From assembly GCA_030037815.1 (NCBI GenBank), contig JASHPZ010000062.1, forward strand, positions 1 through 63,052: a DNA stretch of 63,052 bases. Reading direction: 5' to 3'. The notes beneath the pieces were generated by a model that was not told where the DNA came from, did not search any database, and was given only the letters and a program-made list of their open reading frames with translations. This document shows, piece by piece, positions 18,985 to 36,012 of the stretch (its first letter is position 1; each line of letters begins with the position of its first letter). Source of the DNA: Thermoplasmata archaeon (GTDB lineage: Archaea; Thermoplasmatota; Thermoplasmata; Lutacidiplasmatales; UBA184). The position numbers were made by a program, and so were the translations under genes.

Positions 18985-19529
18985 CCCCGGCGCGCCCGGT
19001 GCCGCGGGTCGTCGCCGCGGCGCTGCGGCCCCCGGACCCCCACTGCTACGGGCACTGCTCCGAACCGGTGCGACCGCATCCGGTGACGATGCGCCTTCCG
19101 GGCTCTTTGGCCGTCTACGCCTGTCCCGGGGGCGTGGTGTCGGTCAGCGTCTACGCCGAGTGGGCCGCGCGCGACCCGTCGACGCTTGTCCTCCGCGAGC
19201 TCCGCCGCCGCGCGAGCCCGGCCCGAACGGTCCTCCGGCGCGACCTGCGCCTCGCGACGCGCCACGGGCCGGAGCTCGGCCCGGATCCCGAACGGTTCCT
19301 CGCCGAACGCGGCGGGGAGATACCGGTCCGCGTCGTCTACTGGCGTCGGTATCCGGTCCGTCGGGGCGCGGTCGTCCACCGCCTGTTCGCCTGCTTCCGG
19401 CACGGGCGCGGGACGGTCCGGTTCTACGTGGCGCCCGATTCGGACCCGCCGGCGCGCTGCCCCGCCTGTCGTCGGAGTTCCCGGTCTCGGGTTACGTCGA
19501 CGGGACGTTCCGCTCGAGCAAGAAGTTGA
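18981..19529 (+). CDS. Hypothetical Cys-rich protein
   Basis: The GTG overlaps the upstream TGA (GTGA). Motifs HCYGHC near the N-terminus and CPAC near the C-terminus. GC3 bias is good until the last ~13 codons, which overlap the convergent hydrolase gene. Confidence 0.45.
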   Translation: MTPARPVPRVVAAALRPPDPHCYGHCSEPVRPHPVTMRLPGSLAVYACPGGVVSVSVYAEWAARDPSTLVLRELRRRASPARTVLRRDLRLATRHGPELGPDPERFLAERGGEIPVRVVYWRRYPVRRGAVVHRLFACFRHGRGTVRFYVAPDSDPPARCPACRRSSRSRVTSTGRSARARS

Positions 19530-20322
19530 CCAAGAGGCCCGCGTACTGCTCGGGTTGGGTCGACTGAGGGGAGTGCCCGGTGCCCCGCATCGTTTCGAAG
19601 GTCCCGTTCCGCAGCAGCGCCTCCAGGCGCTCGGCGATGCGATGCACGAAGTTCGGGCTCCGGTCCCCCACCGTCACGAGCGCCGGCACGAGGAGCTCGC
19701 GGACGGCCGACTCCGAGGGCAGCGCGGCCTCCGGGTCCGCGAACTCGTCCGCCCACTGGTCGACGCGCTCGGCGACCCGCCGTTGACCGGACGCGCCGAG
19801 GCGCGACCACGCGTCGGGGTCCACCGAGAACGCGCCGACCAGCGCCTGCGCCGCGTCCGCCCGCTGCCCCGCGCCCACGAGTCGCCGGACCTCCGTCACG
19901 AGCCGGTCGAGGCGCTCCGCCTCGGCCGCGGTGTCGGGCGTCCCTCGCAACAACCCGATAAAGGGCGGTTCGTGCAACGCGACGCTGCGCACGAGCTCCG
20001 GTCGCTCGTGGGCCAGGCGCAGGGCGACCGCGCCCGCGTAGGAGTGCGCGATCAGGTGCGCGGGGTAGAAGTCCTCCGCCACGAGCAGCTCCCCCAAGTC
20101 GCCGGCGTCGGCCCGAACGCGGGCGTCGGACCAAGGCCCGCGGCTCTCCCCGTAGCCGCGGCGGTCGTAGGTGAGAATGCTCAGCGACTGCGCCAGGAGC
20201 GGGGCGACCCGGTCGAACGCGTGCCGGTCTTCGAGCGAGCCGTGGACGAGCACGGTCGGGTCCCCGTCGGCGCCGTGCCGCTCGTAGCCGAGCCGCACCG
20301 GTCCGAGCTGTGCCTCCGACAT
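19492..20322 (-). CDS. Alpha/beta-fold hydrolase
   Basis: The nucleophile elbow is LIAHSYAG. Also VLVHGS and a C-terminal GTGHSPQ. ATG at 20322, with an alternative GTG at 20340. Confidence 0.8.
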   Translation of the reverse strand: MSEAQLGPVRLGYERHGADGDPTVLVHGSLEDRHAFDRVAPLLAQSLSILTYDRRGYGESRGPWSDARVRADAGDLGELLVAEDFYPAHLIAHSYAGAVALRLAHERPELVRSVALHEPPFIGLLRGTPDTAAEAERLDRLVTEVRRLVGAGQRADAAQALVGAFSVDPDAWSRLGASGQRRVAERVDQWADEFADPEAALPSESAVRELLVPALVTVGDRSPNFVHRIAERLEALLRNGTFETMRGTGHSPQSTQPEQYAGLLVNFLLERNVPST

Positions 20323-20415
20323 CGAGAGCCCGCGGCCCACGCCGCGACGTCAGATAGCCGTACGCGCGCCGGCCGAAGCCCTTAGGTGCCCCGAGCCGGT
20401 GGCGCCGTCGGAACC

Positions 20416-20706
20416 ATGCCGTCGTACGTGTACCTCGTCACGTGGACCGACCAGGGCATCCGCGACGTGAAGCAGTCCCCGGAACGGGGCGACGCGTTCC
20501 GCGCCGCGGTGGAAGGGGACGGAGGGCGCGTCGTCGCCCTCCTCCACACGATGGGTGCCTTCGACCTAGTCGTGCTGGTCGAACTTCCGTCGGACGAGGT
20601 CGCGAACCGGCTCGCCCTCCGGACCGGCCGGCAAGGATTCGTGCGGACGACCACCCTCAAGGGGTGGACCGAGGCCGAGTTCAAGCGACTCGTCGACACC
20701 CTCTAG
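20416..20706 (+). CDS. GYD-domain protein
   Basis: MPSYVYLVTWTDQG...GAFDLVVLVELPSD...TTTLKGW matches the GYD family layout. ATG at 20416. Confidence 0.7.
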   Translation: MPSYVYLVTWTDQGIRDVKQSPERGDAFRAAVEGDGGRVVALLHTMGAFDLVVLVELPSDEVANRLALRTGRQGFVRTTTLKGWTEAEFKRLVDTL

Positions 20707-20723
20707 CCGACGGGTCCCCGAAC

Positions 20724-21026
20724 GTGAGCGCGATCTTCCAGCGGCCGCTCTGCGACCTGGGACGGGCCTACGACTTCGCGCTGCGCCCGTTGATCGGCGA
20801 CCCCGAGGTCGGGAGCGGCGGCGCGTGCGACGACCGCCCGCACGCGGTCGAGCTCTACTCCGCCACCACCGACCCGTCGTCGCCGACCGCCGTCTGGCAG
20901 CGGTTCTCGCTCTGCCCCGAACACGAGGAGCAGTTGCGACGGCACGACGCGAAGCTACTCGCGCGCGGCGTGCCCAGCCGCCTGCGCTCGCCCATCGCGC
21001 CGCCGATCGGGGGCGGGTCCCGATGA
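20724..21026 (+). CDS. Hypothetical protein
   Basis: GTG at 20724. 100 aa. Its stop overlaps the aldo/keto reductase ATG (ATGA). Confidence 0.4.
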   Translation: MSAIFQRPLCDLGRAYDFALRPLIGDPEVGSGGACDDRPHAVELYSATTDPSSPTAVWQRFSLCPEHEEQLRRHDAKLLARGVPSRLRSPIAPPIGGGSR

Positions 21027-21880
21027 CCGGGGCCACGTCGCCGCCGTCGCGTCTCTCCGCCCGGTTCCCCCTCAACCATGGGTCGGGGATCCCGTGCGTC
21101 GGGCTCGGCGTGTTCCAGTCCGAAGCCGGTCCGACCACGCGCCACGCCGTCGCGTGGGCGCTCGAGGACGGCTACCGGCACATCGACACCGCCGCGATGT
21201 ACGGGAACGAGGCCGACGTCGGGGAGTCGGTCCGCGCCTCCGGTCTGGACCGCGACGAGGTGTTCGTCACGACGAAGCTCTGGCACACCGACCACGGGTT
21301 CGAGAACGCCCAGGCGGCCTGCCGCCAGAGTCTCGCGCGCCTCGGGCTCGGCTACATCGACCTCTACCTGATCCACTGGCCCCGGGCGAAGTCACCGGAC
21401 GACCGGATCGCCTCCTGGCGAGCGCTCGAAAAGCTGCGCGCCGAGGGCCTCTGCCGGGCGATCGGCGTGAGCAACTACACGGTCCGCCACCTCGAGGAGC
21501 TCCGCGCCCACTCGGACGTCGTGCCGGCGGTCGACCAGGTCGAGCTCCATCCGTTCGTCTTCGACCCCGAGCTCCTCGCCTACGCGGACGGGCGGGGGAT
21601 CCGGTTGGAGGCGTGGTCGCCGCTCACCCGCGGACGCCACTTGGACCACCCGACGATCCAGGGGATCGCCCGCGCCCACGACCGCACCCCCGCGCAGGTC
21701 CTCGTGCGGTGGGGGCTCGAGCACGGCGTGGTCGAGATCCCGAAGTCGGTCCATCGGGAGCGGATCCGCGAGAACGCCGCGGTGTTCGACTTCGCGCTGT
21801 CGGCCGACGAGGTGCGCGCCCTGGACGCGCTGCGCGGCGGTCCGCGGGTCGGGCTCTGGAACCCGGTCGACATTCCCTGA
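21023..21880 (+). CDS. Aldo/keto reductase
   Basis: Motifs HIDTAAMYGNE, LYLIHWP and VSNY. 285 aa. Confidence 0.88.
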   Translation: MTGATSPPSRLSARFPLNHGSGIPCVGLGVFQSEAGPTTRHAVAWALEDGYRHIDTAAMYGNEADVGESVRASGLDRDEVFVTTKLWHTDHGFENAQAACRQSLARLGLGYIDLYLIHWPRAKSPDDRIASWRALEKLRAEGLCRAIGVSNYTVRHLEELRAHSDVVPAVDQVELHPFVFDPELLAYADGRGIRLEAWSPLTRGRHLDHPTIQGIARAHDRTPAQVLVRWGLEHGVVEIPKSVHRERIRENAAVFDFALSADEVRALDALRGGPRVGLWNPVDIP

Positions 21881-21940
21881 CGTCGGGCCGGCCCGGAGCG
21901 GCCGGTTCCGGTACGCGGAGGGCGTGTCCACCGGTTGGCC

Positions 21941-21949
21941 TAATATATT
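21941..21949 (+). promoter_or_regulatory. TATA-like element (TAATATATT) upstream of the ferredoxin gene
   Basis: This is the strongest AT run in the region, about 34 nt upstream of the ATG at 21979. Confidence 0.45.
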
Positions 21950-21978
21950 CAACCTCGGTGGGACGTCATAGGACGACC

Positions 21979-22257
21979 ATGGTCAGCGTCGAGGTAGCCC
22001 ACGAGAAGTGCACCGGATGCAGCCACTGCCGCGATGTCTGTCCGGTGACCGTCTTCGAGATGCAGCCCCGCGAGAACTGGCCGAACGTCGTGGACGACCC
22101 CGCCGTCGCCGCCAAGTTCCAGTTCCGCGCGGAGAAGTCGGCCGTCATCCACGGACCGGACTGCATCATGTGCGAGGCGTGCCTCTTCGAGTGCGAGGGC
22201 GAGTGCATCACCATCGTGGACGACGAAGGGACCGTCCACCAGTCGACCTACAAGTAG
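21979..22257 (+). CDS. 2x[4Fe-4S] ferredoxin
   Basis: Cluster motifs CTGCSHCRDVCP and CIMCEACLFEC. 92 aa. Confidence 0.85.
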   Translation: MVSVEVAHEKCTGCSHCRDVCPVTVFEMQPRENWPNVVDDPAVAAKFQFRAEKSAVIHGPDCIMCEACLFECEGECITIVDDEGTVHQSTYK

Positions 22258-22285
22258 GCCGGCGCCGCCGCGCGGCCGCCGCCGC

Positions 22286-23269
22286 TCAGATCAGGTGCTG
22301 CCGCGGCCGGTAGAACGTCGACTTGACCTGGGCCGGCGCCCCGTCCTTCGGGAACCGGACCCGCACGCCGGACGACCGGCCGAACGCGGTGAACTCGAGC
22401 GAATACCAGACGGCGGTCCACTCGCCGCCCGCGTCCGGGTACGCCTCCCCGAAATGGTAGGTGTCGCCGATGACGCGGCTCGCCTTCCGGGCGAGCGGGT
22501 ACGACCACTCGAGCGCCTCGGCCGCCGACGCGGGCGGTCCGGTGTACGGGACCGGCTCGACGGGGCCGCCGACCGAGAGGGGACCGGCCACGAGCCCGCG
22601 CCCGAGGACGTACCGTCCCCACGTGGTCGTCACCCGACCGCCCTCCGCCCGCTCGGACAGGAGCACCCACGCGAACGGGTTGCCGGTCGGCACGACGCGG
22701 TCGAACGCGCCGCCCGGCCTCACGTGCCGGCCGATCGCGAGGCGGCCGGCGAGGCGCACCGCGAAGTAGGCGGCGAAGAACGCGATCAGGACGTAGACCG
22801 TCCCGAGGTAGACCGCGAACGCGACGTGGTTGCGCTCGACGCCGAGGAGCAGGTAGAACGCGACCGCGGAGACGACCAGCGTGACGAAGTTGATCGCCCG
22901 GTCGGCGTCCAGTTCGAGCCGGCGCTCCGAGAACGGGAGGAGCGGCGGGACCGAGAAGTTGGTGAACCCGTCCTGGAGGATGTGCGCGACCCCGCCGAGC
23001 TCCATCACGAGGAAGTAGACGACGGGGGAACCGGGGAGGATCATCGGCGCGAGGAGCGACCCCGCGCCCGCAACCACGCTCACGCCGAGCAGCGAGTGGG
23101 TGATCCCGTGGTGGCGCAGGATGGGGAACCGCCGGGCGATCGGGAAGAACAGCGCGTCCGCGTCGGGGAGGCCGCCCGCGAGCGCGCCGGCCGCCAGATA
23201 CTGGGGTTGCGGGCCGACGGCGAGGAACGTGAGGAGGTACGCGACCAGGACGTGGGTCAGTAGGTCCAC
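22286..23269 (-). CDS. Membrane-bound metal-dependent hydrolase (DUF457/YdjM-like) with an extra C-terminal domain
   Basis: MDLLTHVLVAY...HHGITHS motifs and multiple TM helices, followed by a soluble C-terminal region of about 140 aa. Confidence 0.65.
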   Translation of the reverse strand: MDLLTHVLVAYLLTFLAVGPQPQYLAAGALAGGLPDADALFFPIARRFPILRHHGITHSLLGVSVVAGAGSLLAPMILPGSPVVYFLVMELGGVAHILQDGFTNFSVPPLLPFSERRLELDADRAINFVTLVVSAVAFYLLLGVERNHVAFAVYLGTVYVLIAFFAAYFAVRLAGRLAIGRHVRPGGAFDRVVPTGNPFAWVLLSERAEGGRVTTTWGRYVLGRGLVAGPLSVGGPVEPVPYTGPPASAAEALEWSYPLARKASRVIGDTYHFGEAYPDAGGEWTAVWYSLEFTAFGRSSGVRVRFPKDGAPAQVKSTFYRPRQHLI

Positions 23270-23291
23270 GGGCGCGCGGAAGGAGCTCCGC

Positions 23292-23558
23292 TCAGAGGAG
23301 CCCCTCCTCCATCACTTCGACCGACTCGACGTGCGGGATCTTCGCGAACGCCTCCTCGACCTTCGCGAGGACGCCGCCCGCGTCGTCCATCACGACCGAG
23401 ACGAGGAGCGACTTCAGCCCGAACGCGATGTCCTTCACCTGGAGGCCGCGGACCTGGACGCCCTCGGGAAGCGCGGCGCGGACGCCGTTCGCGAGCCCCT
23501 GCATGTCCGTCTCGACGCCCTGGGGCATCAGACGGAAGAGGACGGCGACGCGGCCCAC
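23292..23558 (-). CDS. ef1b: Translation elongation factor aEF-1 beta
   Basis: (M)GRVAVLFRLMPQGVETD...AFGLKSLLVSVVMDD...VESVEV is the typical aEF-1beta sequence. 88 aa with a GTG start. Its usual zinc-finger neighbour lies immediately upstream. Confidence 0.88.
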   Translation of the reverse strand: MGRVAVLFRLMPQGVETDMQGLANGVRAALPEGVQVRGLQVKDIAFGLKSLLVSVVMDDAGGVLAKVEEAFAKIPHVESVEVMEEGLL

Positions 23559-23567
23559 GGACGACCC

Positions 23568-23741
23568 CTACGGACCCTCGAAGCCGCACTTCGGGCAGTG
23601 GTAGACGACCGACTGGTCCCGACAGCGGGCGCAGCGGCCAATCGTCACTTCGGCGCAGTTCGGGCAGAGGAACTGGGTCGCGCCGGGCGCCGGGACGGCG
23701 CGCCCGCACGAGGTGCACCGGAGCTCCTGCTGCGCCATCAT
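23568..23741 (-). CDS. Small zinc-finger protein (two C4 ribbons; the family conserved next to ef1b)
   Basis: [16 protein letters not shown]...[17 protein letters not shown]...[11 protein letters not shown]. 57 aa. Only the upstream part of the track ORF is rejected. Confidence 0.75.
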
Positions 23742-23758
23742 GGTCGACCCGTCCCGCC

Positions 23759-24610
23759 CTAGCGCTTCGCGGCGCCGCGGCGGCGCGCGGCGAGTCGGGT
23801 GACCAATATAAAGATGGTCCCGAGGAAGGCGACCGCTCCGGCGAGGTACCACAGGGAATAGTTGGGCGTCGGCCCGGGGACGTAGAACGACACCGAGTAG
23901 GAGTTCTGCCCGTTGCCGAACGTGACGAGCCCGCGCGGCACGAGCAACGTCAGCGTGAACGTGTGCGTGCCGGCCGAGAGGCCGAGCGTGACGTAGGAGT
24001 AGCTGAACTGGTAGTTCTGGTTCGCGTCCAGGTTGGGCACGCTGACGTTGCCGACCTGCGTGCCGTCCAGCGCGACCAGGATCGTGAACTGCCCGACGTT
24101 CGCGGAGCCGGTGACGAGCGTCGCCTGGACGACGTACGGCTGCACGACGTGGACGAGGTAAGTGATGTTGATCGACTGGTTCTGCGTCTGGTAGACGCTC
24201 GTCACCTCGACCTGGATCGTCAGCACCTCGGTCGTGTTCGCGACCTCGAGGATCGGCCGGCCGGGGGTGCCGTTCAGGATCAGCGAGCTCGTCGGCGTGA
24301 GCGTGACGCCGGTGAGGTTGGAGCCGAGCACCTGGGCGAAGTAGGTGAGGTTCCCGATGATCGTCCCGTTCGGCGCGACCGCGGGGCCGCCCGTCGCCTG
24401 GATGATGTAGGTGGTCGAGGCGCGCAGCGCGACCACGCTCGGGCCGGTGATGTTCGCCGTGACCGAGCCCGTGGCGGGCGTGAGGCCCGACGAGGCGGAC
24501 GACGCGGCGTTCCCGCCCGCGGGCGACCCCCCGCTCGCGACGAGCCCGGCGGCGCCCAGAGGGCCGGCGACCAGGAGCGCGACCACCAGCCAGAACGACC
24601 AGCGCGTCAC
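23759..24610 (-). CDS. Secreted, C-terminally membrane-anchored surface protein rich in N-glycosylation sequons
   Basis: The GTG at 24610 overlaps the aglB TGA (GTGA), and an alternative GTG lies at 24637. N-terminal signal-like helix [15 protein letters not shown]. About 10 N-x-S/T sequons by hand count. C-terminal TM helix followed by RRRGAAKR. Confidence 0.7.
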
Positions 24611-27600
24611 CGTCGCGTCCACCTCCGGGTGCGCCACCAGCGGTAGGTGACGACCGCCGCGATCAGGACGAGCGACGGGACGAAGACGAGCACCGGGACG
24701 ACCCAGTCCGGGAGCGCGTTCGGCGGGCTCCCGACCGACGGACCGGTGACGGTGAACTGCGGTTGGCCGGGGCTCGGCGACGGGCGGATCGCCACGGTCG
24801 GGACCCCGATCGTCACGGTCGATTGGACCGCGCCCGAGGCGTTCAGCACGGTCGCCTCGACCGTGACGGAGACCGGCGGCGCGAACGCGGACGTCGTGGT
24901 CGTGAGGTTGACCCGCTGGGTCGTGTTGACGCCGGCCGCGATGTACCGGGTCGGGCCCTGCCCGGCCGACGTCGCCCCGATCGTCGCCGACCAGCCGAGC
25001 CCGGAGAGGCGGGCCTGGTCCACGATCGTCAACAGGACGGTCTCGCCCTGGTTCCCCGAGTTCGCGACGTAGAACGGCACGACCGCGCTGGTCGGGCTGA
25101 CCGTCACGCCCTGGGTCGACTTCCCGATCGACACCCCGTAGTACCCGAGGACCTTGATCTGCGGCGACGGCGACACGGAGCCGACGATCGTGCCGTTCGC
25201 CGTCTCAAATTCGATCAGCACGTTCGGGTGGTTGACCGGGGTGCCGGTCGGCACCGTGATGCGGACCTCGCCCGACGCGGTCGGCCCGTTGGGCGTCAGG
25301 TTCACCCACGGGTTCGTGAAGTTGAACGTCCAGTAGGCGGGGCTCCCGACCGCCTGCACCATGATCGGCACGTTGCCCGCGTCCCGCACGGTGTAGCCGA
25401 ACGTCGCAACCCCGCCGCCCGCGACGGTCGCGGACGTCGGTCCGACCAGCGTGCCGCCCGCCCGTTCGAGCGTCGGCACGGCGAGCGCGAGGACCGTGCC
25501 CAGGTTCGAGTTCGTCACCCGGACGGATTGGTGGGCGACCGCGTTCGAGACGACCCCGTTGAGGGAGCCCGGCGCGACCGCGGAGATCGAATAGACGCCG
25601 ACGGGCAACCCGATCGTGATCGGCGCGCCCGGCGTCACGTTCTTGAACAGGGTGACGCGGCCGAACGGGTCCTGGACGTAGACGGAGGCGGGGCCGGCCG
25701 TCGCGCCGGACGCGTTCGGGTTGGTGACGCTGATCGTGTCGGTCCACGTCGGGGAGAGCACGATGGAGGCGTTGCCGACGGACGACGGGAGCAGGAGCAG
25801 CGAGGCGAATCCGCCGAGCGGCTCGGCGCCCGAGCCGCCCGAGGCGTAGACCGAGTACGCGCCCGGGAGGACGGCGGCCGAGAAGCTGCCGTTCGTGGTG
25901 CTGACGACGGTGATGTTGTCGGTCGGGTACGGGCCGAGGAGGCGGAGCGACCCCGGGACCCGCCCGGGGACTCCGGGGCTCGTCAGCGTCCCGTTGAGGA
26001 ACACGGGGAGCGTGCGTCCGACCATCGAGATCGCGCACCGTTCCGAGGACGGCGTGACGGTACAGGAGGCGCCCGCGGCCGACGACCAGGCGGCGTTGTA
26101 CGTCCCGTTCGGCCCGATGACGGTCCCGGACGCGTTCGCGAACCCGAAGTACGTCTGGTTCGGCGGCAACGTCGCGGTGAAGGCGCCGTTGTTGACGCTC
26201 GTGACGATCCGGCTCCCGCCCGGGCCGACGAGCGTGAGGGTCGTGTTGAGCGACAGGGACGCCCCGGACGCGCCCGTGAGCGCGCCGGTCACCGCGAGGC
26301 CGGCCCGGTTGAGGACGACCTTCGGCGTGATCGTCCCGGTGGACGACACGGTGACGCGGGTCACGTTCGAGTACGTTGTGCCCCCGCCCGTCCCGGTGAC
26401 CGTCGCGGTGTACGTGCCGGGGGCCGCGTAGAACCCGTCCGTCGTGTAGTCGGTCCCGTTCGTCGAGAGGTTGAGGAGCGGGGAGGAGAGCGCGACCGTC
26501 ACGTTCGCGATCGGAACGCCCGACGGCAGCGCGAGGGTGCCGGTCGAGTTGACCTGGTAGAGCAGCGTGAGCGTCAGCGTCGAGCGCGTCGCCCCGAACG
26601 GGATGGTGGTCGAGAGGACCTGGCTCGGCAGGTAGACGACCGTGCCGTTGCCGATGACCGCCTTCGCCCCGACGCCGTAGACGCCGGGCGCGAGCGCGAG
26701 CGAGAACCGCGGACCGCCGGTGAGGTTGATGACGGAGACCGCGGTCGTGCTCTCCGCCGTGAAGTTCACGGTCACGGTCGTGCCGGACGGCAGGCCGAGC
26801 ACGGTGAGATTGGTCGGGACCGTCTGGATCGTCAGCGGGTAGGACGACATCGAGGCGAGCCCGTTCGGCGAGATGCCGCACGTGCTGGCCGACCGGAACC
26901 CGAGGCTCGTCGCCCCGACGCAGTACGACGGCGCGGAGAGCGGCAGCGTGGTCGGGAGGTACGCGGTGACCGAACCGTTGGCGTCCGCGACCAGCGGCAC
27001 GGCCGGACCGGTCGGACCCGCGGAGATCGTGACCGCGGCGTCGGCGGCGGGGTAGAACGCCCCGCTCCCGAGCGTCGCGCCGACCGAGAAGTGGGCCGTG
27101 ACCGCGCTGGAGGGGGTCAGCGAGAGCCGGGTCGTTCCGGTGAGCGTGACGGGCGCGATCGCCGCGTAGAGCGGGGTGCCGGGCGTGGAGGCGCCGGTGA
27201 GCGACAGGACGCCGTACGAGCCCGCCGGCAGAAGCAACGAGTAGCCGCCGGACGCGGCGGCGATCGTCGTCACCTGTCCGCCCGACGGCGCGTACGCCGT
27301 CACGACCGTCTCGTTGGCGCCGCTCGACCCGACCGCGCTGACGGTGCCGGAGAGCGAGACGGCCGGCGTCAGCTGGAGCGTGGGGACGACGGTCGCGAGG
27401 CCGGCGGGCGTGGAGACGCTCGAGACGCCGGCGTAGAGCTGGCTCCCGACGTAGCCGACCGCGTAGACCGCGTACTGTCCGGCGGGGAGGGCGACCGTCG
27501 CGCCCCCGTTGGGACCGGTCGTCACGACCGTCGCGTTCGCGAGCCCGGCCTCGATCGCCGAGAGCGGCGAGGTCGTCTGATTGCCGAACGTCGCGATCGG

Positions 27601-30600
27601 CGTGAACCGGACCGGGATGTTCGCGACCGGTTGTCCGTTCGCCTGCACGCTGAACGACACCAGGGTCGACGGCACGGCGGTGAGGTTGAGCGACTCCTGG
27701 GCGCCCGGGGCCGCGATGTCGACGGTCGGCCCGGGCGACCGCAACCCGGCGGAAGGCACGCTCGCCCAGACGGTGTAATTCCCGGGCCCGAGGTTCGTGA
27801 GGTTGAACCCGCCGGTCCCGTTCGTGTAGGCGGTCGCGTAGGTGCCGTTCGGGGTCCCGGCGGTGACGGTCGCGCCCGGAATCCCGACGCCGGACGACGA
27901 CGTCACGTTCCCGAAGATCCGGCCCGCCGGCAATCCGGCGGAGGAATTCACGGCCGCGCCGGGGGTGACGATCACCTCCGACTCCGAGTAGTTGTGCCCC
28001 TGGTAGACGACCGCCGAGTGGTAGGTTCCGGGGGCGACGTTCGCGAGGTTGAACGCGCCGCTCGCGTCGGTCGTGGCCGTCAGCCGCGACTGGTTCGTGT
28101 CGCCCCAGAGGACGAACTGGGCGCCCGGGGTGACCGTGTCCTTCACCGGGTCGTACGTCGTGTTGTTCGCGGTGTTCCAGTAGATCAGGCCCGAGACCGT
28201 GCCCGACGCGAGCTGGAACGTCTGGCTGATCGCGGGCGCCTGGAGGTTGTAGCCGAGCGCGTTCGGGACGTAGAAGGGGATCGTCTTGAGGATGATGTTC
28301 CCCTGCTGGCTCAGCCCCTGGAGCGTGCCCGCCGTCACGTTGATCGTGTCGTTCCCGGGCGGGAGGACGAGGGAGAACGAGCCGTCCGACGCGCTGACGG
28401 TCGTCATGTGCGGAATCCCCCACTGGTCGAACACGGTCACGCGGGCGCCGCCGACCGGCCCGCCGTTCGACGTCTCGAGGGTCCCGTAGAGGGTCTCACC
28501 GGGGTAGTAGGCGAGCATCGACTCGCCGCCCTGGAAGTAGCTCACCGCGGAGGTGTCGGCCGTGCCGTTGTTCGCCTTCGCGTTCGCGACGGCGGCGGGC
28601 TCGTTGGTCGCCGAGAAGCAGGCCGAGCCGTCGGTCGCGTTCGCCTGCGGGCAGTAGTAGGCCGTCTTGTAGACGACCATGAAGTGCTGGAGCATCCAGC
28701 CCGGCTCGAGCGGGGACGACTGGGCGGCGCCGGAGAGGCCCGGGATCCCGCCCGACAGCCCGACGTCGGTCCCGTTATAGCCGATGTAGATGTGGTAGAT
28801 CATCGAGTTGTAGAACGGTGCGAAATAGTTGATGTAGTAGTCGACCGCCGAGACCGTCGCGGGGAGCTGACCGGCCGGGTACGTCTGACCGTTCGAACCC
28901 AGGATCGTGACGTTGAAGTAGGTCGAGGGGAGGCCCGCGTCGTCGATCACGCGGCCCGTCAGGTCCGCCGGTGCGTAGTAGATGCCCGTGTCGGTCCCGC
29001 TGAACGGGAACAGGCGGGTGTCGCTCATCGCGTACCGGATCGACCAGCCGGTGTACGCCTGGACGTCGTTGTAGACGCGCGAGATCCCCGTGAGGGTGAG
29101 CGAGTTCGCGAGGTACCACTCGGTCGCGATGTACATCGCGTTGTCGTCCGTCAGCGTGGACGGGTCGACGGGGAGGTAGCGGCCGGGGTTGTTGACGACG
29201 AGGTTGTAGTCCGCGCTCGTGTTGACGAGGAGGTTGTGGAACTCGGTGAGGTTCACGCCGTCGACCGCGAGCATCTGGTTGAGCGCGGTCGGGAGGTACG
29301 GGAGGCCGGAGGCCTTCTGCTCCGCCTGCAAGAGGGTGACCGCGAGGACGGCGATCGCCTGCGACTCGTTCTGGGAGAGCAGGAACTGGCCCGCCGGGTC
29401 GATGCCGTTCTGGAAGTTGTCGGCGACGCTCGGGTGGTCGCCCTGGTCGATCGCCTGGAACCCGTAGTCCCACCAACTGATGAACGCCGGACGGTTCGAC
29501 GGCGCGACGTTCGTATCCTGCTGCGCGAGCCAGTTGTAGCCGGCGCTATCGTACTGGTTCGGGGTGTCGAGCGAGCTGCCCGCGGCGCCGAAGTAGTTCG
29601 AGGCCGGCGCGGAGGAGTTGAGGCTCAGCCACGACGGGATCGTCTTCGCCACCTGGGCCGCGAACTGGTCCTTCGTGTTCCCCGGGATCCCCGCGTCGAT
29701 CGAGATCCAGATGTTCGGGAGAAGCAGCGCCACCACGACGCCGATGATCACGACGTGGCGCACCTTGAACGACTTCCGGAACGCGGAGAACTGGCTCCGC
29801 CGGTCGGAGAGCGACGCGACGTTGCGCCGGAGCTCCGGGTACCGTCCGACCTCGAGGGCGCGGCGGATCGCCTCCGCCGGCAACAGCGCGAACGCGGGCG
29901 AGCCGAGGAGGAAGAACTTCGACGCCGAGATCGGCAGGTAGATCGACAGGATCGCGAAGACGAGGAAGACGAGGAGGTACCGCTTGAACCGGTGGTGGAC
30001 GGTGAGGTAGCCGAACAGCGCGAGCCCGACGAACGCGAGGAAGAACGTGAACACCCCGTAGCCGATGATCAGTTCGTCGATGGACGGCGCCTGCGCCTCC
30101 GCGACGGTCGAGTAGATCAGGGTCTTGACGAAGTACCCCTGCCCCGTGATCAGGCTCGTGAACAGGCTCGGGCGGAACACCGCGAGCGCGAGCGTCCCGA
30201 GCCCGAGGACGAGGACCATCAGCGGGATCGAGAACACCCACGGGATGTCCCGCATCAGGAGGAACGGGAGGAGCAGGATGAGGATCCCGAAGAAGAGCAG
30301 CGCCGGCAGGACGAAGAACGTCGCGAACCCCGGCGCCGACAACGAGCCGTACTGGGTGAGGTAGTACGGCATCTCCATCGGGAAGCCGACCAGCCCGACG
30401 ATCCACGTCACGACGTAGAGCCCGAACGAGTCGATCCGGCGGACCCGCTCGATGACCATCGCGACCAGGACGCCGACCCCGATGACCACGACGTCGTACG
30501 TGTACCCCTGCCAGGCGAGGGCGAGGGCGCCGAGGGAGACGCCGGTGAAGACGGCCCATTTCACGGCCGTACGTTCGGTCCGTAGGAAGTTCCGCAAACC

Positions 30601-31224
30601 GGGCCAGTACTGCCGGGGGTCGCGGTAGCTCTCGATCCACCGCCGACTCCCGACCGCTTTGACCGTACGGATGTAGCCGTACAACACGACCAGGATGAGG
30701 AACGTGTAGAACGAGAGGTAGTTCGCGTACCCGAAGATCGACGAGTCGATGCTGGCGCTCAGGAACGGGAAGATCAGGACCGCGATGAGGCCGGTCCGGC
30801 GCCCGCTCACCTCGCGTCCGATCAGGTAGATCGGGAACACGGAGAGCGCGGCCCACAGCGGCGCCTGGAGGTCGAGGAACCACGCGCCCGCGACGACGGC
30901 GTTCCCGCCGAAGAACGGGGCGAACAGGAGCCCCAGGATGGCGTTCATCCAGTCGAACAGCGGCTCCCGCGGGTTGATCGCCCCGACCGGGAACCGGAGC
31001 ATCGGGTCGCGGACGAGGTTGTGGTGCGTGAGGATGATGTACTGCATCACCCGCGAGTGGTAGTACGAATCGGAGCCGCCGGCGTAGGTGTAGAGCGGGC
31101 CGTACTGCGCGATGATCGGGTAGGCGAAGATCGTCCGGATCGCGAGGGTTAGCCCGAACGCGGTCAGCAGGATCGCGACCGTCCACCCGTGACGGCTCCA
31201 CCAACCCGGCTGCGTCGTGTCCAT
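24607..31224 (-). CDS. aglB: Archaeal oligosaccharyltransferase AglB (STT3 family) fused to a ~1300-aa repeat-rich extracellular extension with a C-terminal TM anchor
   Basis: A single 2205-codon ORF. The multi-TM N-terminus carries [13 protein letters not shown] is encoded at nt 29461-29475 (aa 584-588). From about aa 910 there are at least 10 beta-sandwich repeats of the type TDxSGxFxLxxLxPGxYxV, then a CARDB/NEW3-like segment, a final hydrophobic helix and [10 protein letters not shown]. Confidence 0.9.
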
Positions 31225-31272
31225 GCGTGGCCGGGACTCCTGGGAACCGGCGGCGCGCGAGACCTAGGGGGG

Positions 31273-31282
31273 CTATAAATAG
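31273..31282 (-). promoter_or_regulatory. TATA box candidate (CTATTTATAG on the minus strand) for aglB
   Basis: A strong AT island 50-58 nt upstream of the aglB ATG at 31224. Confidence 0.45.
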
Positions 31283-31351
31283 GCTACTATCGGAAACCAC
31301 CGTACGGCGCGACGCGCGCCAACCGGTAGCGGTCCGGAGCTCATCCGGTCG

Positions 31352-31891
31352 CTAGTCCACCACGCGGAATCGGTAGAACCACCGGCCGTCACCGACATCG
31401 TACGGCTCGACCCGGACCGCGAGACCGATGGCGAGGTCGGCCCACGGCCGCCCCTCGATCCGTCCAAACAGACGCAGCGGGACTCCGTCCAGGTCCACCA
31501 GACCGACCGCGAACGGCACATCGGCCTCCATCCCCATCGGCGCCCCCGCGAGGACCGCGCTGAACGCGTAGATGCGTCCGGATTCGGGAAGGTCGACCCA
31601 GGAGAGCTCTTCGGAGTGACACCGCGGGCACGCCGTCCGGGGCGGCCAGTGAAGGAGGTCGTCCCGCGCGCACCGCGTCGTCGAGAGCCGCCCGGCCGCG
31701 AGGCGCTCGAAGAACCGGGCGAGGCGGGTGTCCTTCTCGGACTCGAGCGGCACGAAGTCGAGGAGGAACGGCCGGGCCGGCCCCGACTTCCGCTCGGTGG
31801 GCGGGGCCGGGTCGGCGCGGGGGGGCGACGACGCGTCGGGCGTCGGCGCGTCTCCCGTCGACGTTCGGCGCCGCGGGAGGTCGACCGTCAC
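31352..31891 (-). CDS. DUF35 OB-fold/zinc-ribbon protein (thiolase partner), copy 1
   Basis: The zinc ribbon is CARDDLLHWPPRTACPRC, followed by an OB-fold tail (VPFAVGLVDLDGV). The GTG at 31891 overlaps the thiolase TGA (GTGA). Confidence 0.75.
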   Translation of the reverse strand: MTVDLPRRRTSTGDAPTPDASSPPRADPAPPTERKSGPARPFLLDFVPLESEKDTRLARFFERLAAGRLSTTRCARDDLLHWPPRTACPRCHSEELSWVDLPESGRIYAFSAVLAGAPMGMEADVPFAVGLVDLDGVPLRLFGRIEGRPWADLAIGLAVRVEPYDVGDGRWFYRFRVVD

Positions 31892-33066
31892 GCGGCGCCT
31901 CCGCGCTGGTAGACCATGACCGAATGGACGTTCGCGCTGCCGGAGAGGTTGTGGACGAGCGCCCACTCCGCGTTCTCCGCCGGTCGTGCGGCGGTGCCGG
32001 AGAGCTGCCGGAACACCTCGACCGCCTGCGCGACCCCGGTCGCGCCGAGCGGGTGGCCGCAACCGAGGAGTCCGCCCCGCGGGTTGACGACCAGGTCGCC
32101 GCCGAGGTCGCCGCGGCCGTCGGTGGCGAACGTGCCGCCCTGGCCCGGCGGGCAGAGGCCGAGCGCTTCGTACTCGACGATCTCCGAGATCGTGAAGCAG
32201 TCGTGCACTTCCGCGACGTCGACGTCGCGGATGCCGATCTTCGCCCGGCCGAGCGCCTCGTGGGCGGCTCGGGTCAACCCGGGCCACTCCGTCAGCGACC
32301 CCGCGTTCGCGAGATTGTGGAAATCCGAATATTGGCCCGTGCCCCGGATCCACGCCGGGGTCCGGGTGTACCGGCGCACGTGGTCCTCGCTCGCGAGCAC
32401 CACGGCGGCCGCTCCGTCCGTCATGGACGAGCAGTCTCCCAACCGCAGCGGCGGGGCGATGACCGGGAGCCGGAGGAGCTTCTCGCGGCTGAACGTCTTC
32501 TCGTAGAACTGGGAGTGCGGGTTCGCGTTCGCGAACCGGTGGTTCTTCTCGGAGACGGCGGCGAGCGCCTCCTCGGTCGTCCCGTGTTCGAGCATGTGGC
32601 GCTGCGCGACCATCGCGAAGAACGGCGGCGCGGTCGCACCGGCCGGTCCGTCCCAGGCGCGGTCCATCACGCACGCCATCGACGCGTTCGCCTCGGCCAT
32701 CGAGGGAAGGTTCATCTTCTCGACCCCGACCGCGACCGCGACGTCCGAGAGGCCCGACGCGATCGCGGCGTACGCCGAACGGATCGCGGACTGGCCGGAG
32801 GCGCAGGCGAGCTCGGTCCGCTGGATGATCCGGTGCGGTCGGAGGCCCATCTGCTCCGCCGCGAGGGGGGCCACGTGGGATTGGAACGCAAATCGCTCGG
32901 GTTCGGCGGCGCCGACGAACAACGAGTCGACGTCCTCGGTCGTCAGCGCCGGGACCTCCCGGAACAGGGCGGCGCCGACCTCCTGCGCGAGCTCGGCCCA
33001 GGTGAGCGGTCGGACCCCGAACTTCGTGGTCGCGCCGCCGACGATCGCGACCGCCCGACCCGTCAT
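31888..33066 (-). CDS. Thiolase-family protein (SCP-x / acetyl-CoA C-acyltransferase-like), copy 1
   Basis: Active-site Cys context [13 protein letters not shown]-terminal motifs [17 protein letters not shown] and GSANVHSV. The ATG at 33066 overlaps the upstream stop (ATGA). Confidence 0.85.
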
Positions 33067-34196
33067 CGCGCCTCCCCCCGGACCGCCGCCGCGACGAGGT
33101 CTCCCGCCGCGCTGGTCGACACCGAGCCTCCCTGGTCGTAGGTCTTCGCCGCGCCGCGGGCGAGCGTCCGCGCGACCGCGGACTCGAGGCGGTCGGCCTG
33201 GCCCGTGAGCCGCCGGTCGGCGTGCCGGTCGCCAAGCCACCGGAGCATCTGTTCGACCGCAAAGAACGTCGCGAACGGGTTCACCTGGTTCTTCCCCGCG
33301 TACTTCGGGGCCGAGCCGTGGACCGGCTCGAACATCCCGTGGGCGCTTCCGATGTTGCCGCCGGAGGCGAACCCCATTCCGCCCTGGAGGACCGCGGCGA
33401 GGTCGGTGATGATGTCGCCCATCATGTTGGGCGCGACGACCACGTTGTAGTGTTCCGGGTTCCGCACGAGCCACTGCGTGAACGCGTCCACGTAGGCGTA
33501 GTCGCGCGGGATCTCGGAGTACTCCTGCCCGACCCGGTCGAACGTCTCGCGGAAGAATCGGCACCCTTCGAGCACGTTCGCCTTGTCGACGCAGGTGACT
33601 CGGCGCACGCCGTCCTCGGGGGCGCCGCGCGCGCGGGCCCGCGCGAGCTCGAACGCGTACCGGATCACGCGCTCGGCGCCCTTCCGCGTGATCAGCCGCG
33701 TGTCGACGGCGACCTCCGTCTCGCCGCCACGGGTCAATCGGCCCCGGGCGGGCGTGTAGAGGTCCTCCGTGTTCTCGCGGACGATGACCATGTCGACGTT
33801 CTTCGGGTCCCAGACGGTCCGGTACTCGCCGCTGATCCGGTGGGTCACGCCCGGGTAGAGTCGGCAGGGCCGGACGTTCGCGTAGAGGTCGAGCCCCTCC
33901 CGGAGCCCCAGGACGAGCGCGCGCCCGGCGATGTCACCGTTGGGCAGCGTCGCGCCCGGCCACCCGACGGCCCCCAAGAGGATCGCGTCCGCCCGGTGGG
34001 CGGCCTCCTCGGCCGCGGGCTCCCACTCCTTCCCGGCCTTCAGGTAGTACTGGCCCCCGCCGGGATACTCCGTCGGATGCCACGGCGCCGGCCCGTTCTC
34101 GCCGAGCGCGGCCAACACCTTGAGCCCCTCGCGGACGACCTCCGGGCCCGTGCCGTCGCCGCCGAAGACGGCGACCTCGTACCCGGCGTCCTTCAT
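33063..34196 (-). CDS. leuB: 3-isopropylmalate dehydrogenase family protein (LeuB / homoisocitrate / tartrate dehydrogenase-like)
   Basis: Motifs [19 protein letters not shown] and [14 protein letters not shown]. 377 aa. ATGA overlap with leuD. Substrate cannot be assigned by eye. Confidence 0.8.
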
Positions 34197-34720
34197 GGGG
34201 CGGCCCTCGCCGCCGCCTTCTGCGCCTCGAGCTCGCGCCGGACCTTCTCGACCAGTCCCCCGGCCTCCAACAGCTCGAGCAGGTGGGACGGCAGGGGCGG
34301 AAACTCGATCGAGCGTCCGGTGCGGAGGTTGGTGATCCGTCCCTTCCGCATCTCGATCCGGGCGATTTCGCCCTTCTCGAATAGGGCGCGGACGCCGCGG
34401 GCCTCGATCGTCGGGAGCCCGAGGTTGATCGCGTTGCGGAAGAAGATCCGCGCGAACGAGTCGGCGACCACCGCGCCGACGCCAATCGCGCGCATCGCCT
34501 GGGGGGCGTGCTCGCGGCTCGAGCCGCACCCGAAGTTCTCGTCGGCGACCAGGATGTCGCCCGGCCGCGCCTCCTGAGCGAACTCGGGGAGCGCGATCTC
34601 GAAGACGTGCTTCTTGAGCTCGTTCGGGTCGATGATCGTGAGGTACTTGCCCGAGATGATCTGGTCGGTGTCGACGTCGTGCGGCAGCGTCCAGACGCGG
34701 CCTTCGATGACCTCCTGCAT
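34193..34720 (-). CDS. leuD: 3-isopropylmalate (or homoaconitate) dehydratase small subunit
   Basis: Motifs [13 protein letters not shown] and [12 protein letters not shown]. 175 aa (archaeal short type). Confidence 0.85.
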
Positions 34721-34728
34721 CCGTCCCC

Positions 34729-36012
34729 CTAGACCAGGTCGCGCGGGTCCGCGACCTCGCCGCGGATCGCGCTCGCGACCACCGCAGCCGGCGACATCAG
34801 GTAGATGCGGGCCTCCTTCGCACCCATCCGCCCGGGGAAGTTGCGGTTGGACGACGAGGCGCATGCCTCCTCGGGGGCGAGGATCCCCATGTTCCCCCCG
34901 AAGCAGGCGGAGCAGCTCGAGTTCGTGAACACCGCGCCCGCCTCGGTGAACACCTCGATCAGCCCCTCCTTGAGGCACTGCTCGTAGATCGGCGTGGAGG
35001 CCGGCGAGACGATGAACCGAACGCCCTTCGCGACCGTGTGGCCCTTCATCAGCGCGGCCCCTTCACGGATGTCCTCGATGCGGGCGTTGGTGCACGAGCC
35101 GAGGAACGCCTGGTCGATCGTCACGTGCTCCCGCGCGACGTCGCTCAACGGGCGGACGTTGTCCGGCGAGTAGGGGCAGGCGACCATCGGCGGCATGTCG
35201 TCCACGTCGATCCGGATCGTCCGCTCGTACGACGCGTCCCGGTCGGGCTGCGTCGGGTGCATCGGATGCTTCGCGATCTTCTCGAGGTACTCGTAGGTCT
35301 TCGAGTCGGGCGCCACCATGCCCGCCTTCGCGCCCATCTCGGTCGTCATGTTGCAGATCGTGAACCGTTCGGGCATCGAGAGGCCCTCGACGGTCGACCC
35401 GCCGAACTCGACCGCCTTGTACGTCGCGCCGGTCGTCTTGACCTCGCCGAGCACGCGCAAGACGAGGTCCTTCGCGGTCACGCCTTTCCCCAGCCGGCCG
35501 TTCACCTCGATGCGGATCGTCGGCGGCACCTTGAGCCACAGCCGACCGAGCGCGAGGACGGCCGCCATCTCGGTCGGGCCGACTCCGGCGGCGACGGCGC
35601 CCATCGCGCCTAGCATGTTCGTGTGCGAGTCGGTGCCGACGGCGAGGTCCCCGGGGACGACCCAGCCGTTCTCGGCGAGGATCTGGTGGCAGATCCCGTG
35701 GCGGCCGACGTCGTAGAAGTGGGGGAGGTTCACCTCCGCGGCGAACTTGCGGAGGATGCGGTGCAGGACGGCGGCGCCCTCGGTGGACGCCGGCACCCAA
35801 TGGTCGATCGCAATCACGACGCGGTCCGGGTCCCAGACCTTCTCCGCGCCCATCTGGTGGAACGGCGCGACCGTTTGCGCGCCCTGTTCGTGCATCATCG
35901 CCAGGTCGACGTTCCCCTCGACGATCTGGCCCGGGACGACCCGGTCGAGGCCCGCGGACCGTGCGAGGATCTTTTCGGCCAGCGTCTGCCCGTGTCCGTT
36001 GGAGTTCGTCAT
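34729..36012 (-). CDS. leuC: 3-isopropylmalate (or homoaconitate) dehydratase large subunit
   Basis: Aconitase-family motifs VGTDSHT, GSCTNARIED and CSACFG. 427 aa. The ATG overlaps the upstream stop (ATGA). Confidence 0.88.
   Translation of the reverse strand: MTNSNGHGQTLAEKILARSAGLDRVVPGQIVEGNVDLAMMHEQGAQTVAPFHQMGAEKVWDPDRVVIAIDHWVPASTEGAAVLHRILRKFAAEVNLPHFYDVGRHGICHQILAENGWVVPGDLAVGTDSHTNMLGAMGAVAAGVGPTEMAAVLALGRLWLKVPPTIRIEVNGRLGKGVTAKDLVLRVLGEVKTTGATYKAVEFGGSTVEGLSMPERFTICNMTTEMGAKAGMVAPDSKTYEYLEKIAKHPMHPTQPDRDASYERTIRIDVDDMPPMVACPYSPDNVRPLSDVAREHVTIDQAFLGSCTNARIEDIREGAALMKGHTVAKGVRFIVSPASTPIYEQCLKEGLIEVFTEAGAVFTNSSCSACFGGNMGILAPEEACASSSNRNFPGRMGAKEARIYLMSPAAVVASAIRGEVADPRDLV

Follow-up and report, generated by a model that had tools for sequence, protein, structure and literature searches.

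The locus described here raises the question of how large an archaeal oligosaccharyltransferase (OST) can be, and what an enzyme of this type would do with an extracellular part of well over a thousand residues. AglB, the archaeal OST, is seen as a single-subunit enzyme of about 600-1050 residues, which is the basis of the contrast between the 'simple' prokaryotic and the multi-subunit eukaryotic OST. The window analysed, a stretch of 63,052 nucleotides from a Thermoplasmata archaeon (contig JASHPZ010000062.1), carries on its minus strand an aglB gene of 2205 codons (24607..31224). An earlier note on this DNA had proposed that an ordinary AglB core of about 900 residues is covalently fused here to a sequon-rich, S-layer-like surface domain of about 1300 residues with its own C-terminal membrane anchor, a build for which it knew of no described AglB. 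Our analysis confirmed the fusion itself, found the same single gene in relatives throughout the phylum Thermoplasmatota, and led us, tentatively, to regard the extension as a fixed extracellular scaffold of the OST and not as an S-layer.

The giant aglB gene forms one unbroken open reading frame (ORF) that begins with ATG and ends with a stop after 2205 codons, as the earlier note had stated. Since long ORFs come cheap in high-GC DNA, and the window has about 70% G+C overall, the composition of the individual codon positions was examined. In the aglB frame the G+C content of third codon positions (GC3) stayed at 0.96-0.98 over the full length of the gene, whichever 200-codon block was taken. 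Total G+C along the gene differed between the core (about 0.66) and the extension (about 0.72), and this step was confined to codon position 2 (0.41-0.49 in the core vs 0.56-0.66 in the extension); it therefore reflects amino-acid composition and not a chimeric join. A 1940-aa ORF on the opposite strand (24763..30585, plus) overlaps aglB and was regarded as a shadow ORF of high-GC DNA, not a gene, because the GC3 of 0.96-0.98 belongs to the minus-strand frame. The motifs and strings quoted in the earlier note, namely GGSDSYYH, WWDYG, the distal segment ending in GWSATIG, the hydrophobic helix and the basic tail, were all found where it had placed them. According to hydropathy, transmembrane (TM) segments of the protein occur in residues 16-509 and 2175-2193 exclusively.

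Whether relatives keep the fusion or encode two separate genes, a question put by the earlier note, was answered by a scan with one genome per species, in which 170 relatives were found and 80 loci were kept. All but two of these loci are labelled as Thermoplasmata or Thermoplasmatales metagenome-assembled genomes (MAGs), including UBA184, UBA61 and 'Ca. Lutacidiplasma silvani'. A single high-scoring segment pair (HSP) across the whole query, together with an intact ORF of 2188-2223 aa, was obtained for 66 of the 80 loci; 10 were cut by contig ends, and 4 had frame breaks at differing positions, all in long-read 'MFD' assemblies. A database search with the core at first returned mostly fragments of 520-1249 aa, and on two long contigs the region was split into three to six adjacent genes. 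When compared by tblastn, the split pieces were collinear with the whole 2205-aa protein and merely changed frame. Frame breaks inside aglB were seen in L001 (the same contig as L056), L002, L009, L048 and L054, all of them long-read 'MFD' MAGs, and in L002 other genes were broken too, Iso_dh being in three pieces. As the breaks fall at different points from one assembly to the next and a split contig has further genes in pieces, the split aglB calls are sequencing-error (indel) artefacts of long-read MAGs. Public gene calls thus divide the giant AglB into two to six false genes in such assemblies.

The opposite artefact, in which a chimeric join or an overlooked stop or frameshift makes two real genes look like one, would be helped by the scarcity of stop codons at 70% GC; the long spurious antisense ORF illustrates this tendency, and some public relatives are indeed called as 2-6 adjacent genes. 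Against it stand the even GC3 from end to end in one frame, the presence of the same single ORF in 66 independent short-read assemblies, more than 100 full-length proteins in the databases, and the origin of the split versions in long-read MAGs with differing break points and other fragmented genes. The GC3 profile and the 66 intact orthologous ORFs effectively refute the artefact explanation, to which we attach practically no probability. The uninterrupted 2205-residue AglB is a genuine single ORF.

A search with the extension returned 248 proteins, and the best 120 were almost all 2180-2205 aa long and contained both halves. Their database names are OST/Stt3 at JGI and mostly 'carboxypeptidase regulatory-like domain-containing protein' at NCBI. 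The alignment of 108 full-length orthologs needed 2304 columns for the 2205 residues, so that length is strikingly fixed. Conservation, taken as the share of sequences that have the majority residue, dropped from 0.75-0.89 in the core to 0.53-0.70 in the extension and rose to 0.92 for the last residues. More distant members were collected by using the core as query in an exhaustive HMMER search, in which 1.84 billion cluster representatives gave 620 matches. Among the best 150 of these, 88 are 2010-2775 aa long, down to about 30% core identity, and most of the shorter ones are fragments. All 88 giant representatives have WWDxG near position 570-820, and 86 of the 88 end in a TM helix and a basic tail. 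Four members with 25-31% identity (P0148, P0150, P0152 and P0164) each gave a single collinear HSP of about 2100-2200 residues against the window protein, which indicates that the domains are individually orthologous across deep divergence. The distant members carry STT3 and CarboxypepD_reg domains, and some of them also NOMO_5th, NEW3 or CARDB-like domains. All organism-named members belong to Thermoplasmata or Thermoplasmatota; among them are a Ferroplasma sp. with a 2056-aa giant form (WP_309214711.1, from a 1.86-Mb record) and Caldiplasma sukawensis of the Cuniculiplasmataceae with one of 2093 aa (WP_458329147.1). The giant form is thus the prevalent AglB form across the phylum Thermoplasmatota. 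The window gene is an ordinary member of this large, undescribed architectural class, namely the orthologous AglB of a soil Thermoplasmatota lineage whose closest relatives include UBA184 and 'Ca. Lutacidiplasma' MAGs.

The first 900 residues or so were assigned by the earlier note to an AglB/STT3 core, and this was borne out by profile, fold and motif evidence (all aglB features given from here on lie on the minus strand). The N-terminal multi-TM domain of the GT-C type (glycosyltransferase fold C) comprises residues 1-509 (29698..31224), and the extracellular catalytic globular region comprises residues 510-900 (28525..29697). NCBIfam model TIGR04154 (archaeosortase A-associated archaeal STT3) matched residues 17-695 with E 2.4e-62 and 211.4 bits over model positions 2-584 of 831. 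Because the curated cut-off is 450 bits, the protein is related to the TIGR04154 subfamily and not a member of it. Pfam gave a weak AglB_core-like match around WWDYG (residues 571-627), and STT3 family PF02516 (gathering cut-off 24.5 bits) was absent from the scan of the window protein at E<=1; PF02516 is on record for many orthologs and reached 47-56 bits in distant giant relatives. A single-sequence search of PDB sequences reached the WWDYG neighbourhood of AfAglB-S domains only. A profile of ten close homologs was required to reach AfAglB-L of A. fulgidus (3WAJ), to which it aligned the N-terminus (3WAJ residues 3-165, E 2e-10) and also the WWDYG region. An AlphaFold2 (AF2) model of residues 1-1100, built from 82 sequences, had a mean predicted local distance difference test score (pLDDT) of 77.7 and a predicted template modelling score (pTM) of 0.64, and was helical over residues 8-528 and alpha/beta up to residue 897 or so. 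Its four best PDB matches in Foldseek were AfAglB-L structures (7E9S, 3WAK, 5GMY and 3WAJ; E 1e-18 to 1e-21, target TM-score 0.61-0.64), followed by human STT3A/B, yeast Stt3 and C. lari PglB, and the top 18 matches all belonged to this group. Identity between the core and AfAglB-L was 14-15% in the fold alignment. The canonical AglB part stops near residues 897-900.

The catalytic motifs were also traced individually. The first-loop motif GGSDSYYH (residues 49-56; 31057..31080), which includes Asp52, lies opposite GGNDPWYY of AfAglB-L, and G49, S51, D52, S53, Y55 and H56 are invariant in the 82 sequences. The stretch T373-V-A-E376 (30097..30108), in which T373, A375 and E376 are invariant, resembles the TIXE/SVSE loop-5 motif of other OSTs and may correspond to it. 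WWDYG (residues 584-588; 29461..29475) aligns with the WWDYG of AfAglB proteins, so that D52, E376 and WWDYG are unchanged across the 82 family members. By alignment with hidden Markov models, the second acidic motif (DxD/DxH/DxE) was not identified, GYANY standing opposite GFNDHH of AfAglB-L; the nearly invariant D160 is near this region. The DK/MI pocket motif was not recognisable by sequence alignment either, the region opposite the kinked helix of AfAglB-S having neither a K nor M-x-x-I. The core is a genuine AglB/STT3-type OST, and the invariance of its catalytic motifs makes it most likely that the predicted enzyme is active. Of the 8 sequons in the globular region (residues 510-900), six are shared by at least 50% of orthologs. 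One of them, N619-E-S (residues 619-621; 29362..29370), is kept in 100% of the 108 orthologs and sits in the helix aligned to the DK/MI-motif helix of AfAglB-S. N619 may be a conserved self-glycosylation site beside the Ser/Thr pocket.

The same frame continues beyond the core with an extension of about 13 tandem beta-sandwich domains (residues 901-2140; 24805..28524). Its first part, residues ~903-1180 (27685..28518), is of the CarboxypepD_reg or transthyretin-like kind: PF13620 matched it in 4 stretches with 81.7 bits (cut-off 32.3), and PF13715, SpaA and EMC7_beta-sandw, which are transthyretin/prealbumin-like models, matched it likewise. When ten distal segments were excised one by one, Pfam gave no significant match beyond residue 1180, one segment having a weak PF13620 match of 17.7 bits; it is accordingly the AF2 model that identifies the distal domains as beta-sandwiches. 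This second model (residues 1006-2205, again from 82 sequences; pLDDT 85.6, pTM 0.55) was all-beta: some 12 sandwich domains are followed by a linker and by a helix at residues 2175-2199. One additional sandwich at residues ~901-1000 in the model of residues 1-1100 brought the total to about 13. The claim of at least 10 degenerate beta-sandwich repeats was upheld, and the strict PGxY-type motif was counted 7 times. A BLAST self-comparison of the extension gave no internal matches, which means that the repeats are ancient and strongly diverged, not recently amplified, and that their boundaries cannot be set by sequence. Foldseek matches of the extension model were generic multi-immunoglobulin (Ig) arrays with a TM-score of about 0.1, such as hydin-like ciliary proteins, macroglobulin-domain (MG) arrays of alpha-2-macroglobulin and complement, pilins and adhesin stalks, and they offered no lead on function. 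The CARDB/NEW3 label given earlier to the distal segment found no backing in Pfam, which matched neither of the two distal segments (residues ~1900-2140); their AF2 fold is a beta-sandwich. NEW3 (NPCBM_assoc) did match the relative P0204 (29.4 bits vs 24.4), CARDB came just below its cut-off in P0224 (21.8 vs 22.7), both near the C-termini, and NOMO_5th reached 41.9 bits (cut-off 27) in P0150.

Sequons (N-x-S/T, x not P) number 42 in residues 901-2150, in agreement with the roughly 40 counted by hand before, whereas composition-preserving shuffles gave 15.4±3.4 (z 7.8) and the TM region (residues 1-500) has zero. The extensions of the 108 full-length orthologs contain 27-48 sequons (median 37), and 30 alignment columns of the extension have a sequon in at least 50% of them; the conserved ones include N958, N962, N1093, N1487, N1744 and N2100. 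All six cysteines of the protein form three close pairs, 858/869, 1435/1449 and 1721/1730, which are invariant in the 82 sequences, and this suggests conserved extracellular disulfides. Anything that follows the AglB globular domain is extracellular by AglB/PglB topology. The excess and positional conservation of sequons, the invariant Cys pairs and the lack of a hydrophobic segment in residues 510-2174 all fit a location outside the cell, where the extension would be glycosylated, plausibly by its own catalytic domain.

The distal end is more constrained than the array that precedes it. A juxtamembrane linker with a VTGPSxG...LPDW motif (residues 2141-2173; 24706..24804), conserved across orthologs, leads to the C-terminal TM helix (residues 2174-2193; 24646..24705), which has a hydropathy of 2.69 and a conserved FVPAIAL core, and to an Arg/Trp-rich tail (residues 2194-2205; 24610..24645). 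The terminal hydrophobic helix and basic tail reported earlier were thus found again by hydropathy (residues 2175-2193), in the AF2 model and in the orthologs. In the clade of the window the C-terminus reads VTGPSxG..P..LPDW-LVPLLSFVPAIALVVGV followed by the tail and is almost invariant, though the extension is 44-70% identical, and a (T/S)GP motif was found again in distant relatives. By the positive-inside rule the tail, itself nearly invariant in the clade, is predicted to be cytoplasmic. RWWRTRRW was considered as a shared sorting signal and rejected: in the window and in related loci totalling about 1.6 Mb, each locus has one copy, always on AglB (at the same position in L005-L082), and the tail of the window protein matched no CTERM sorting-signal model and has no PGF motif. 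Among the distant giant AglBs P0209, P0254, P0204, P0207, P0218 and P0176, some have PGF-type C-terminal motifs. The tail of P0209 passed Loki-CTERM (24.6 vs 19.9) and Heimdall-CTERM (24.2 vs 24), and that of P0254 passed Heimdall-CTERM (24.1 vs 24). Tails of the CTERM type in these members would make an OST itself a predicted archaeosortase substrate.

Directly downstream of aglB, in the same direction and overlapping its 3' end and stop codon, lies a gene (23759..24637, minus) for a 292-aa bitopic, sequon-rich CARDB glycoprotein. In the predicted protein a hydrophobic segment at the N-terminus precedes an ectodomain that contains a CARDB domain (25.4 bits vs cut-off 22.7) and 10 or more sequons; a TM helix and a basic tail form the C-terminal end. 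A homolog of about 270-320 aa is found directly 3' of the giant aglB in 71 of the 71 loci that reach that far. It is present as well in the distant loci L083 and L084 (P0210 and P0204), where it overlaps the aglB stop by 4 nt, and the proteins encoded there are detectably homologous (E 4e-9 and 8e-11). An origin as a duplicate of the AglB C-terminus was rejected, since the partner has no significant similarity to the AglB extension. The arrangement of the two genes indicates that the partner is translationally coupled to aglB, and its product is a candidate OST subunit or dedicated substrate. The surroundings (window 19000..37200) contain housekeeping genes that are syntenic with the relatives L001 and L002: ChsH2-like/thiolase, Iso_dh (isopropylmalate/isocitrate dehydrogenase) and aconitase genes upstream, and YdjM, ferredoxin and aldo-keto reductase genes downstream. 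No agl glycosyltransferase cluster was found beside aglB in this region or in L001 and L002.

Taken together, the protein is one polypeptide of four parts: a GT-C core with the WWDYG globular region, a fixed array of about 13 domains, a second TM anchor, and the Arg/Trp-rich tail. Everything from residue ~509, at the end of the last core TM helix, to the terminal helix would lie outside the cell, and the array, with a membrane tether at either end, would form an arch or loop, probably N-glycosylated at the conserved sequons and stabilised by the three conserved Cys pairs. We propose, with somewhat less than even confidence, that the array, the distal anchor and the coupled CARDB protein belong to a Thermoplasmatota OST holoenzyme as built-in modules without catalytic function, forming a rigid, glycan-shielded extracellular scaffold of defined size. 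Such a scaffold would stabilise the enzyme, or position and handle substrates at the membrane surface, or both. The proposal is drawn by analogy with the beta-sandwich-plus-single-TM subunits of the eukaryotic OST and with NOMO. Domain number and order are fixed, the tie to the enzyme has stayed unbroken through phylum-level divergence, the distal anchor is constrained and the partner is coupled; these features point to a defined OST-linked structure, and we do not think that the extension is a generic S-layer lattice or a stalk of variable length. Several points weigh against this proposal. The AF2 models are two separate pieces, so that contact of the core with the terminal helix or the partner would be a supposition; thirteen domains are far above any known OST accessory subunit; and Pfam scans of AglB and the partner gave no sequence homology to ribophorins, OST48 or Ost3/6. 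The heavy sequon loading suits a surface-coat role equally well, and a second, short AglB in the same genomes is possible. The CTERM tails imply that some distant members may lose the terminal helix by cleavage and carry a lipid instead, and what is conserved may be anchoring of the distal end and not a specific helix-helix contact.

An explanation in which the enzyme part has lost its function, so that a catalytically retired core would serve as a multi-span anchor of a surface protein while another, short AglB glycosylates, would account for the score of 211 bits against the trusted cut-off of 450, for the PF02516 model not being reported in the window protein, and for the DK/MI and second acidic motifs that alignment did not identify. 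It is hard to reconcile with the invariant D52, E376 and WWDYG, with the core being the most conserved part of the protein and closest in fold to active AglB, STT3 and PglB, with PF02516 passing its cut-off in distant giant members, and with the best 150 core relatives, which are giant or fragmentary forms with no parallel short family; this explanation is therefore considered very improbable. A surface coat, the main rival, has more to recommend it, although we still hold it to be on the unlikely side. In that case the extension would be mainly structural, an S-layer-like lattice or a dense glycoprotein brush with a self-glycosylating OST at its base, giving mechanical or acid protection. Archaeal surface glycoproteins generally have such a build, with a beta-sandwich array that is dense in sequons and anchored at its C-terminus, wall-less Thermoplasmatales depend on a glycocalyx, the partner gene encodes another small, sequon-rich anchored glycoprotein, and archaeosortase-type CTERM signals, typical of surface proteins, occur in some distant members. 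The 'S-layer-like ectodomain' of the earlier note was not specifically supported, since the Pfam and NCBIfam scans of the window AglB matched no S-layer family, no S-layer protein was among the 50 best PDB folds of the extension, and the giant form occurs in the wall-less Ferroplasma and in Caldiplasma of the Cuniculiplasmataceae. Ferroplasma has no cell wall. Cultured Cuniculiplasma has been described as having a cytoplasmic membrane only, without an S-layer (PMC5155288). The lack of S-layer similarity and the occurrence of the form in Ferroplasma and the Cuniculiplasmataceae make a true S-layer lattice unlikely. Furthermore, a mere coat protein would not be expected to keep domain number and order fixed and never to lose the fusion over phylum-level divergence; both ends lie in the same membrane, unlike known S-layer stalks; and no N-terminal signal peptide and no standalone version was found among the matches to the extension.

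The array may alternatively be a passive spacer, fence or adhesin, that is, an inert rod or arch that shields the active site from surfaces, other cells, viruses or proteases, or that serves attachment, with no intimate catalytic role. Its fold matches are the generic rods, pilins, adhesin stalks and macroglobulin-like arrays named above, relatives have NOMO-like domains, and the distal domains are less conserved (0.53-0.70) than the core (0.75-0.89). However, the usual stalk of an adhesin or spacer consists of near-identical repeats whose number varies, whereas the giant AglB keeps a constant number of ancient repeats, each conserved in its own right; there is no recognisable ligand-binding tip domain, and the distal end comes back to the membrane. 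A role of this kind seems quite doubtful to us. A bolder version of the scaffold proposal would be a self-contained 'holo-OST', in which the active site is covered by a cage or platform made up of the core, the 13 domains arching to the second anchor and the co-translated CARDB subunit, which would couple protein export with transfer of the glycan and assembly of the surface coat. This machine would be the prokaryotic equivalent of the multi-subunit eukaryotic OST and of translocon-associated complexes, either by convergence or by a distant relationship through NOMO/transthyretin-like domains, and the invariant Arg/Trp tail would serve as a specific cytoplasmic docking signal in the clade. This version is speculative and, in our estimate, unlikely in its full form.

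Among known systems, AfAglB-L (3WAJ/3WAK/5GMY/7E9S) is the closest, sharing with the window AglB the GT-C multi-TM domain, the first-loop Asp in a GGxDxYY motif and the WWDYG alpha/beta globular domain. The window protein differs from it in about 1300 further residues (about 13 beta-sandwich domains, the second TM helix and the conserved tail), in the low identity of 14-15% in the fold alignment, and in having no recognisable DK/MI pocket motif. AfAglB-L has 868 aa in total and ends after its 369-residue globular domain (PMC3703281). The eukaryotic OST resembles the window protein in that STT3 is the second-best fold match of its core. In that complex, ribophorin I/Ost1, ribophorin II/Swp1 and OST48/Wbp1 present non-catalytic luminal beta-sandwich domains, each with a single C-terminal TM helix and a short basic tail, beside STT3. 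These subunits are separate polypeptides of one to three domains, whereas the window protein is a fusion with 13, and with no sequence homology detected the likeness is one of analogy. NOMO, in the BOS complex of the endoplasmic reticulum multipass translocon, has a long string of transthyretin/CarboxypepD_reg-like domains and one C-terminal TM helix on the exoplasmic side. The likeness extends to the NOMO_5th match in P0150 and to NOMO1-like_2nd among the precomputed matches of the AglB family, although no NOMO model matched the window AglB itself in the Pfam scan and NOMO, unlike AglB, has an N-terminal signal peptide and no enzyme fusion. Mycobacterial AftD and EmbA/B/C are GT-C enzymes with very large extracytoplasmic beta-rich modules, and the AftD structure reportedly has additional C-terminal TM helices; these bacterial enzymes have other donor and acceptor chemistry, do not act in N-glycosylation, and carry carbohydrate-binding modules, of which no signal was found in the window AglB. 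Finally, S-layer/PGF-CTERM glycoproteins such as the Haloferax volcanii S-layer glycoprotein have Ig-like arrays, dense N-glycosylation and a C-terminal anchor, and PGF/Loki/Heimdall-CTERM-type tails occur in some distant giant AglBs. The window AglB differs from them in having no CTERM match, in the position of its array behind a 13-TM enzyme and not behind a signal peptide, and in the occurrence of the form in wall-less lineages.

The earlier note knew of no described AglB with this architecture. The literature on archaeal N-glycosylation, Thermoplasmata/Thermoplasmatota, Ferroplasma and Lutacidiplasmatales likewise yielded no account of an AglB with this size or build, although a passing mention in surveys (Kaminski et al. 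2013; Nikolayev et al. 2020) is possible. Nor was such an AglB described in the AfAglB-L domain paper, in the genome papers on Lutacidiplasmatales, AMD-plasmas and Cuniculiplasma, or in a review of N-glycosylation in archaea from 2024. The form is not rare; it prevails in Thermoplasmatota and is common in public sequence databases, where it is annotated automatically only. Annotation based on length or on TIGR04154 under-calls giant aglB genes.

A whole archaeal phylum, including the cultivable Thermoplasmatales, thus uses an AglB two to three times the usual size, which brings with it a fixed and ancient extracellular array, a second anchor and a conserved partner gene. If these modules serve substrate handling, stabilisation at low pH or coat assembly, accessory functions of the OST would have evolved independently in archaea, and the giant AglB would be a tractable single-polypeptide model for such functions.

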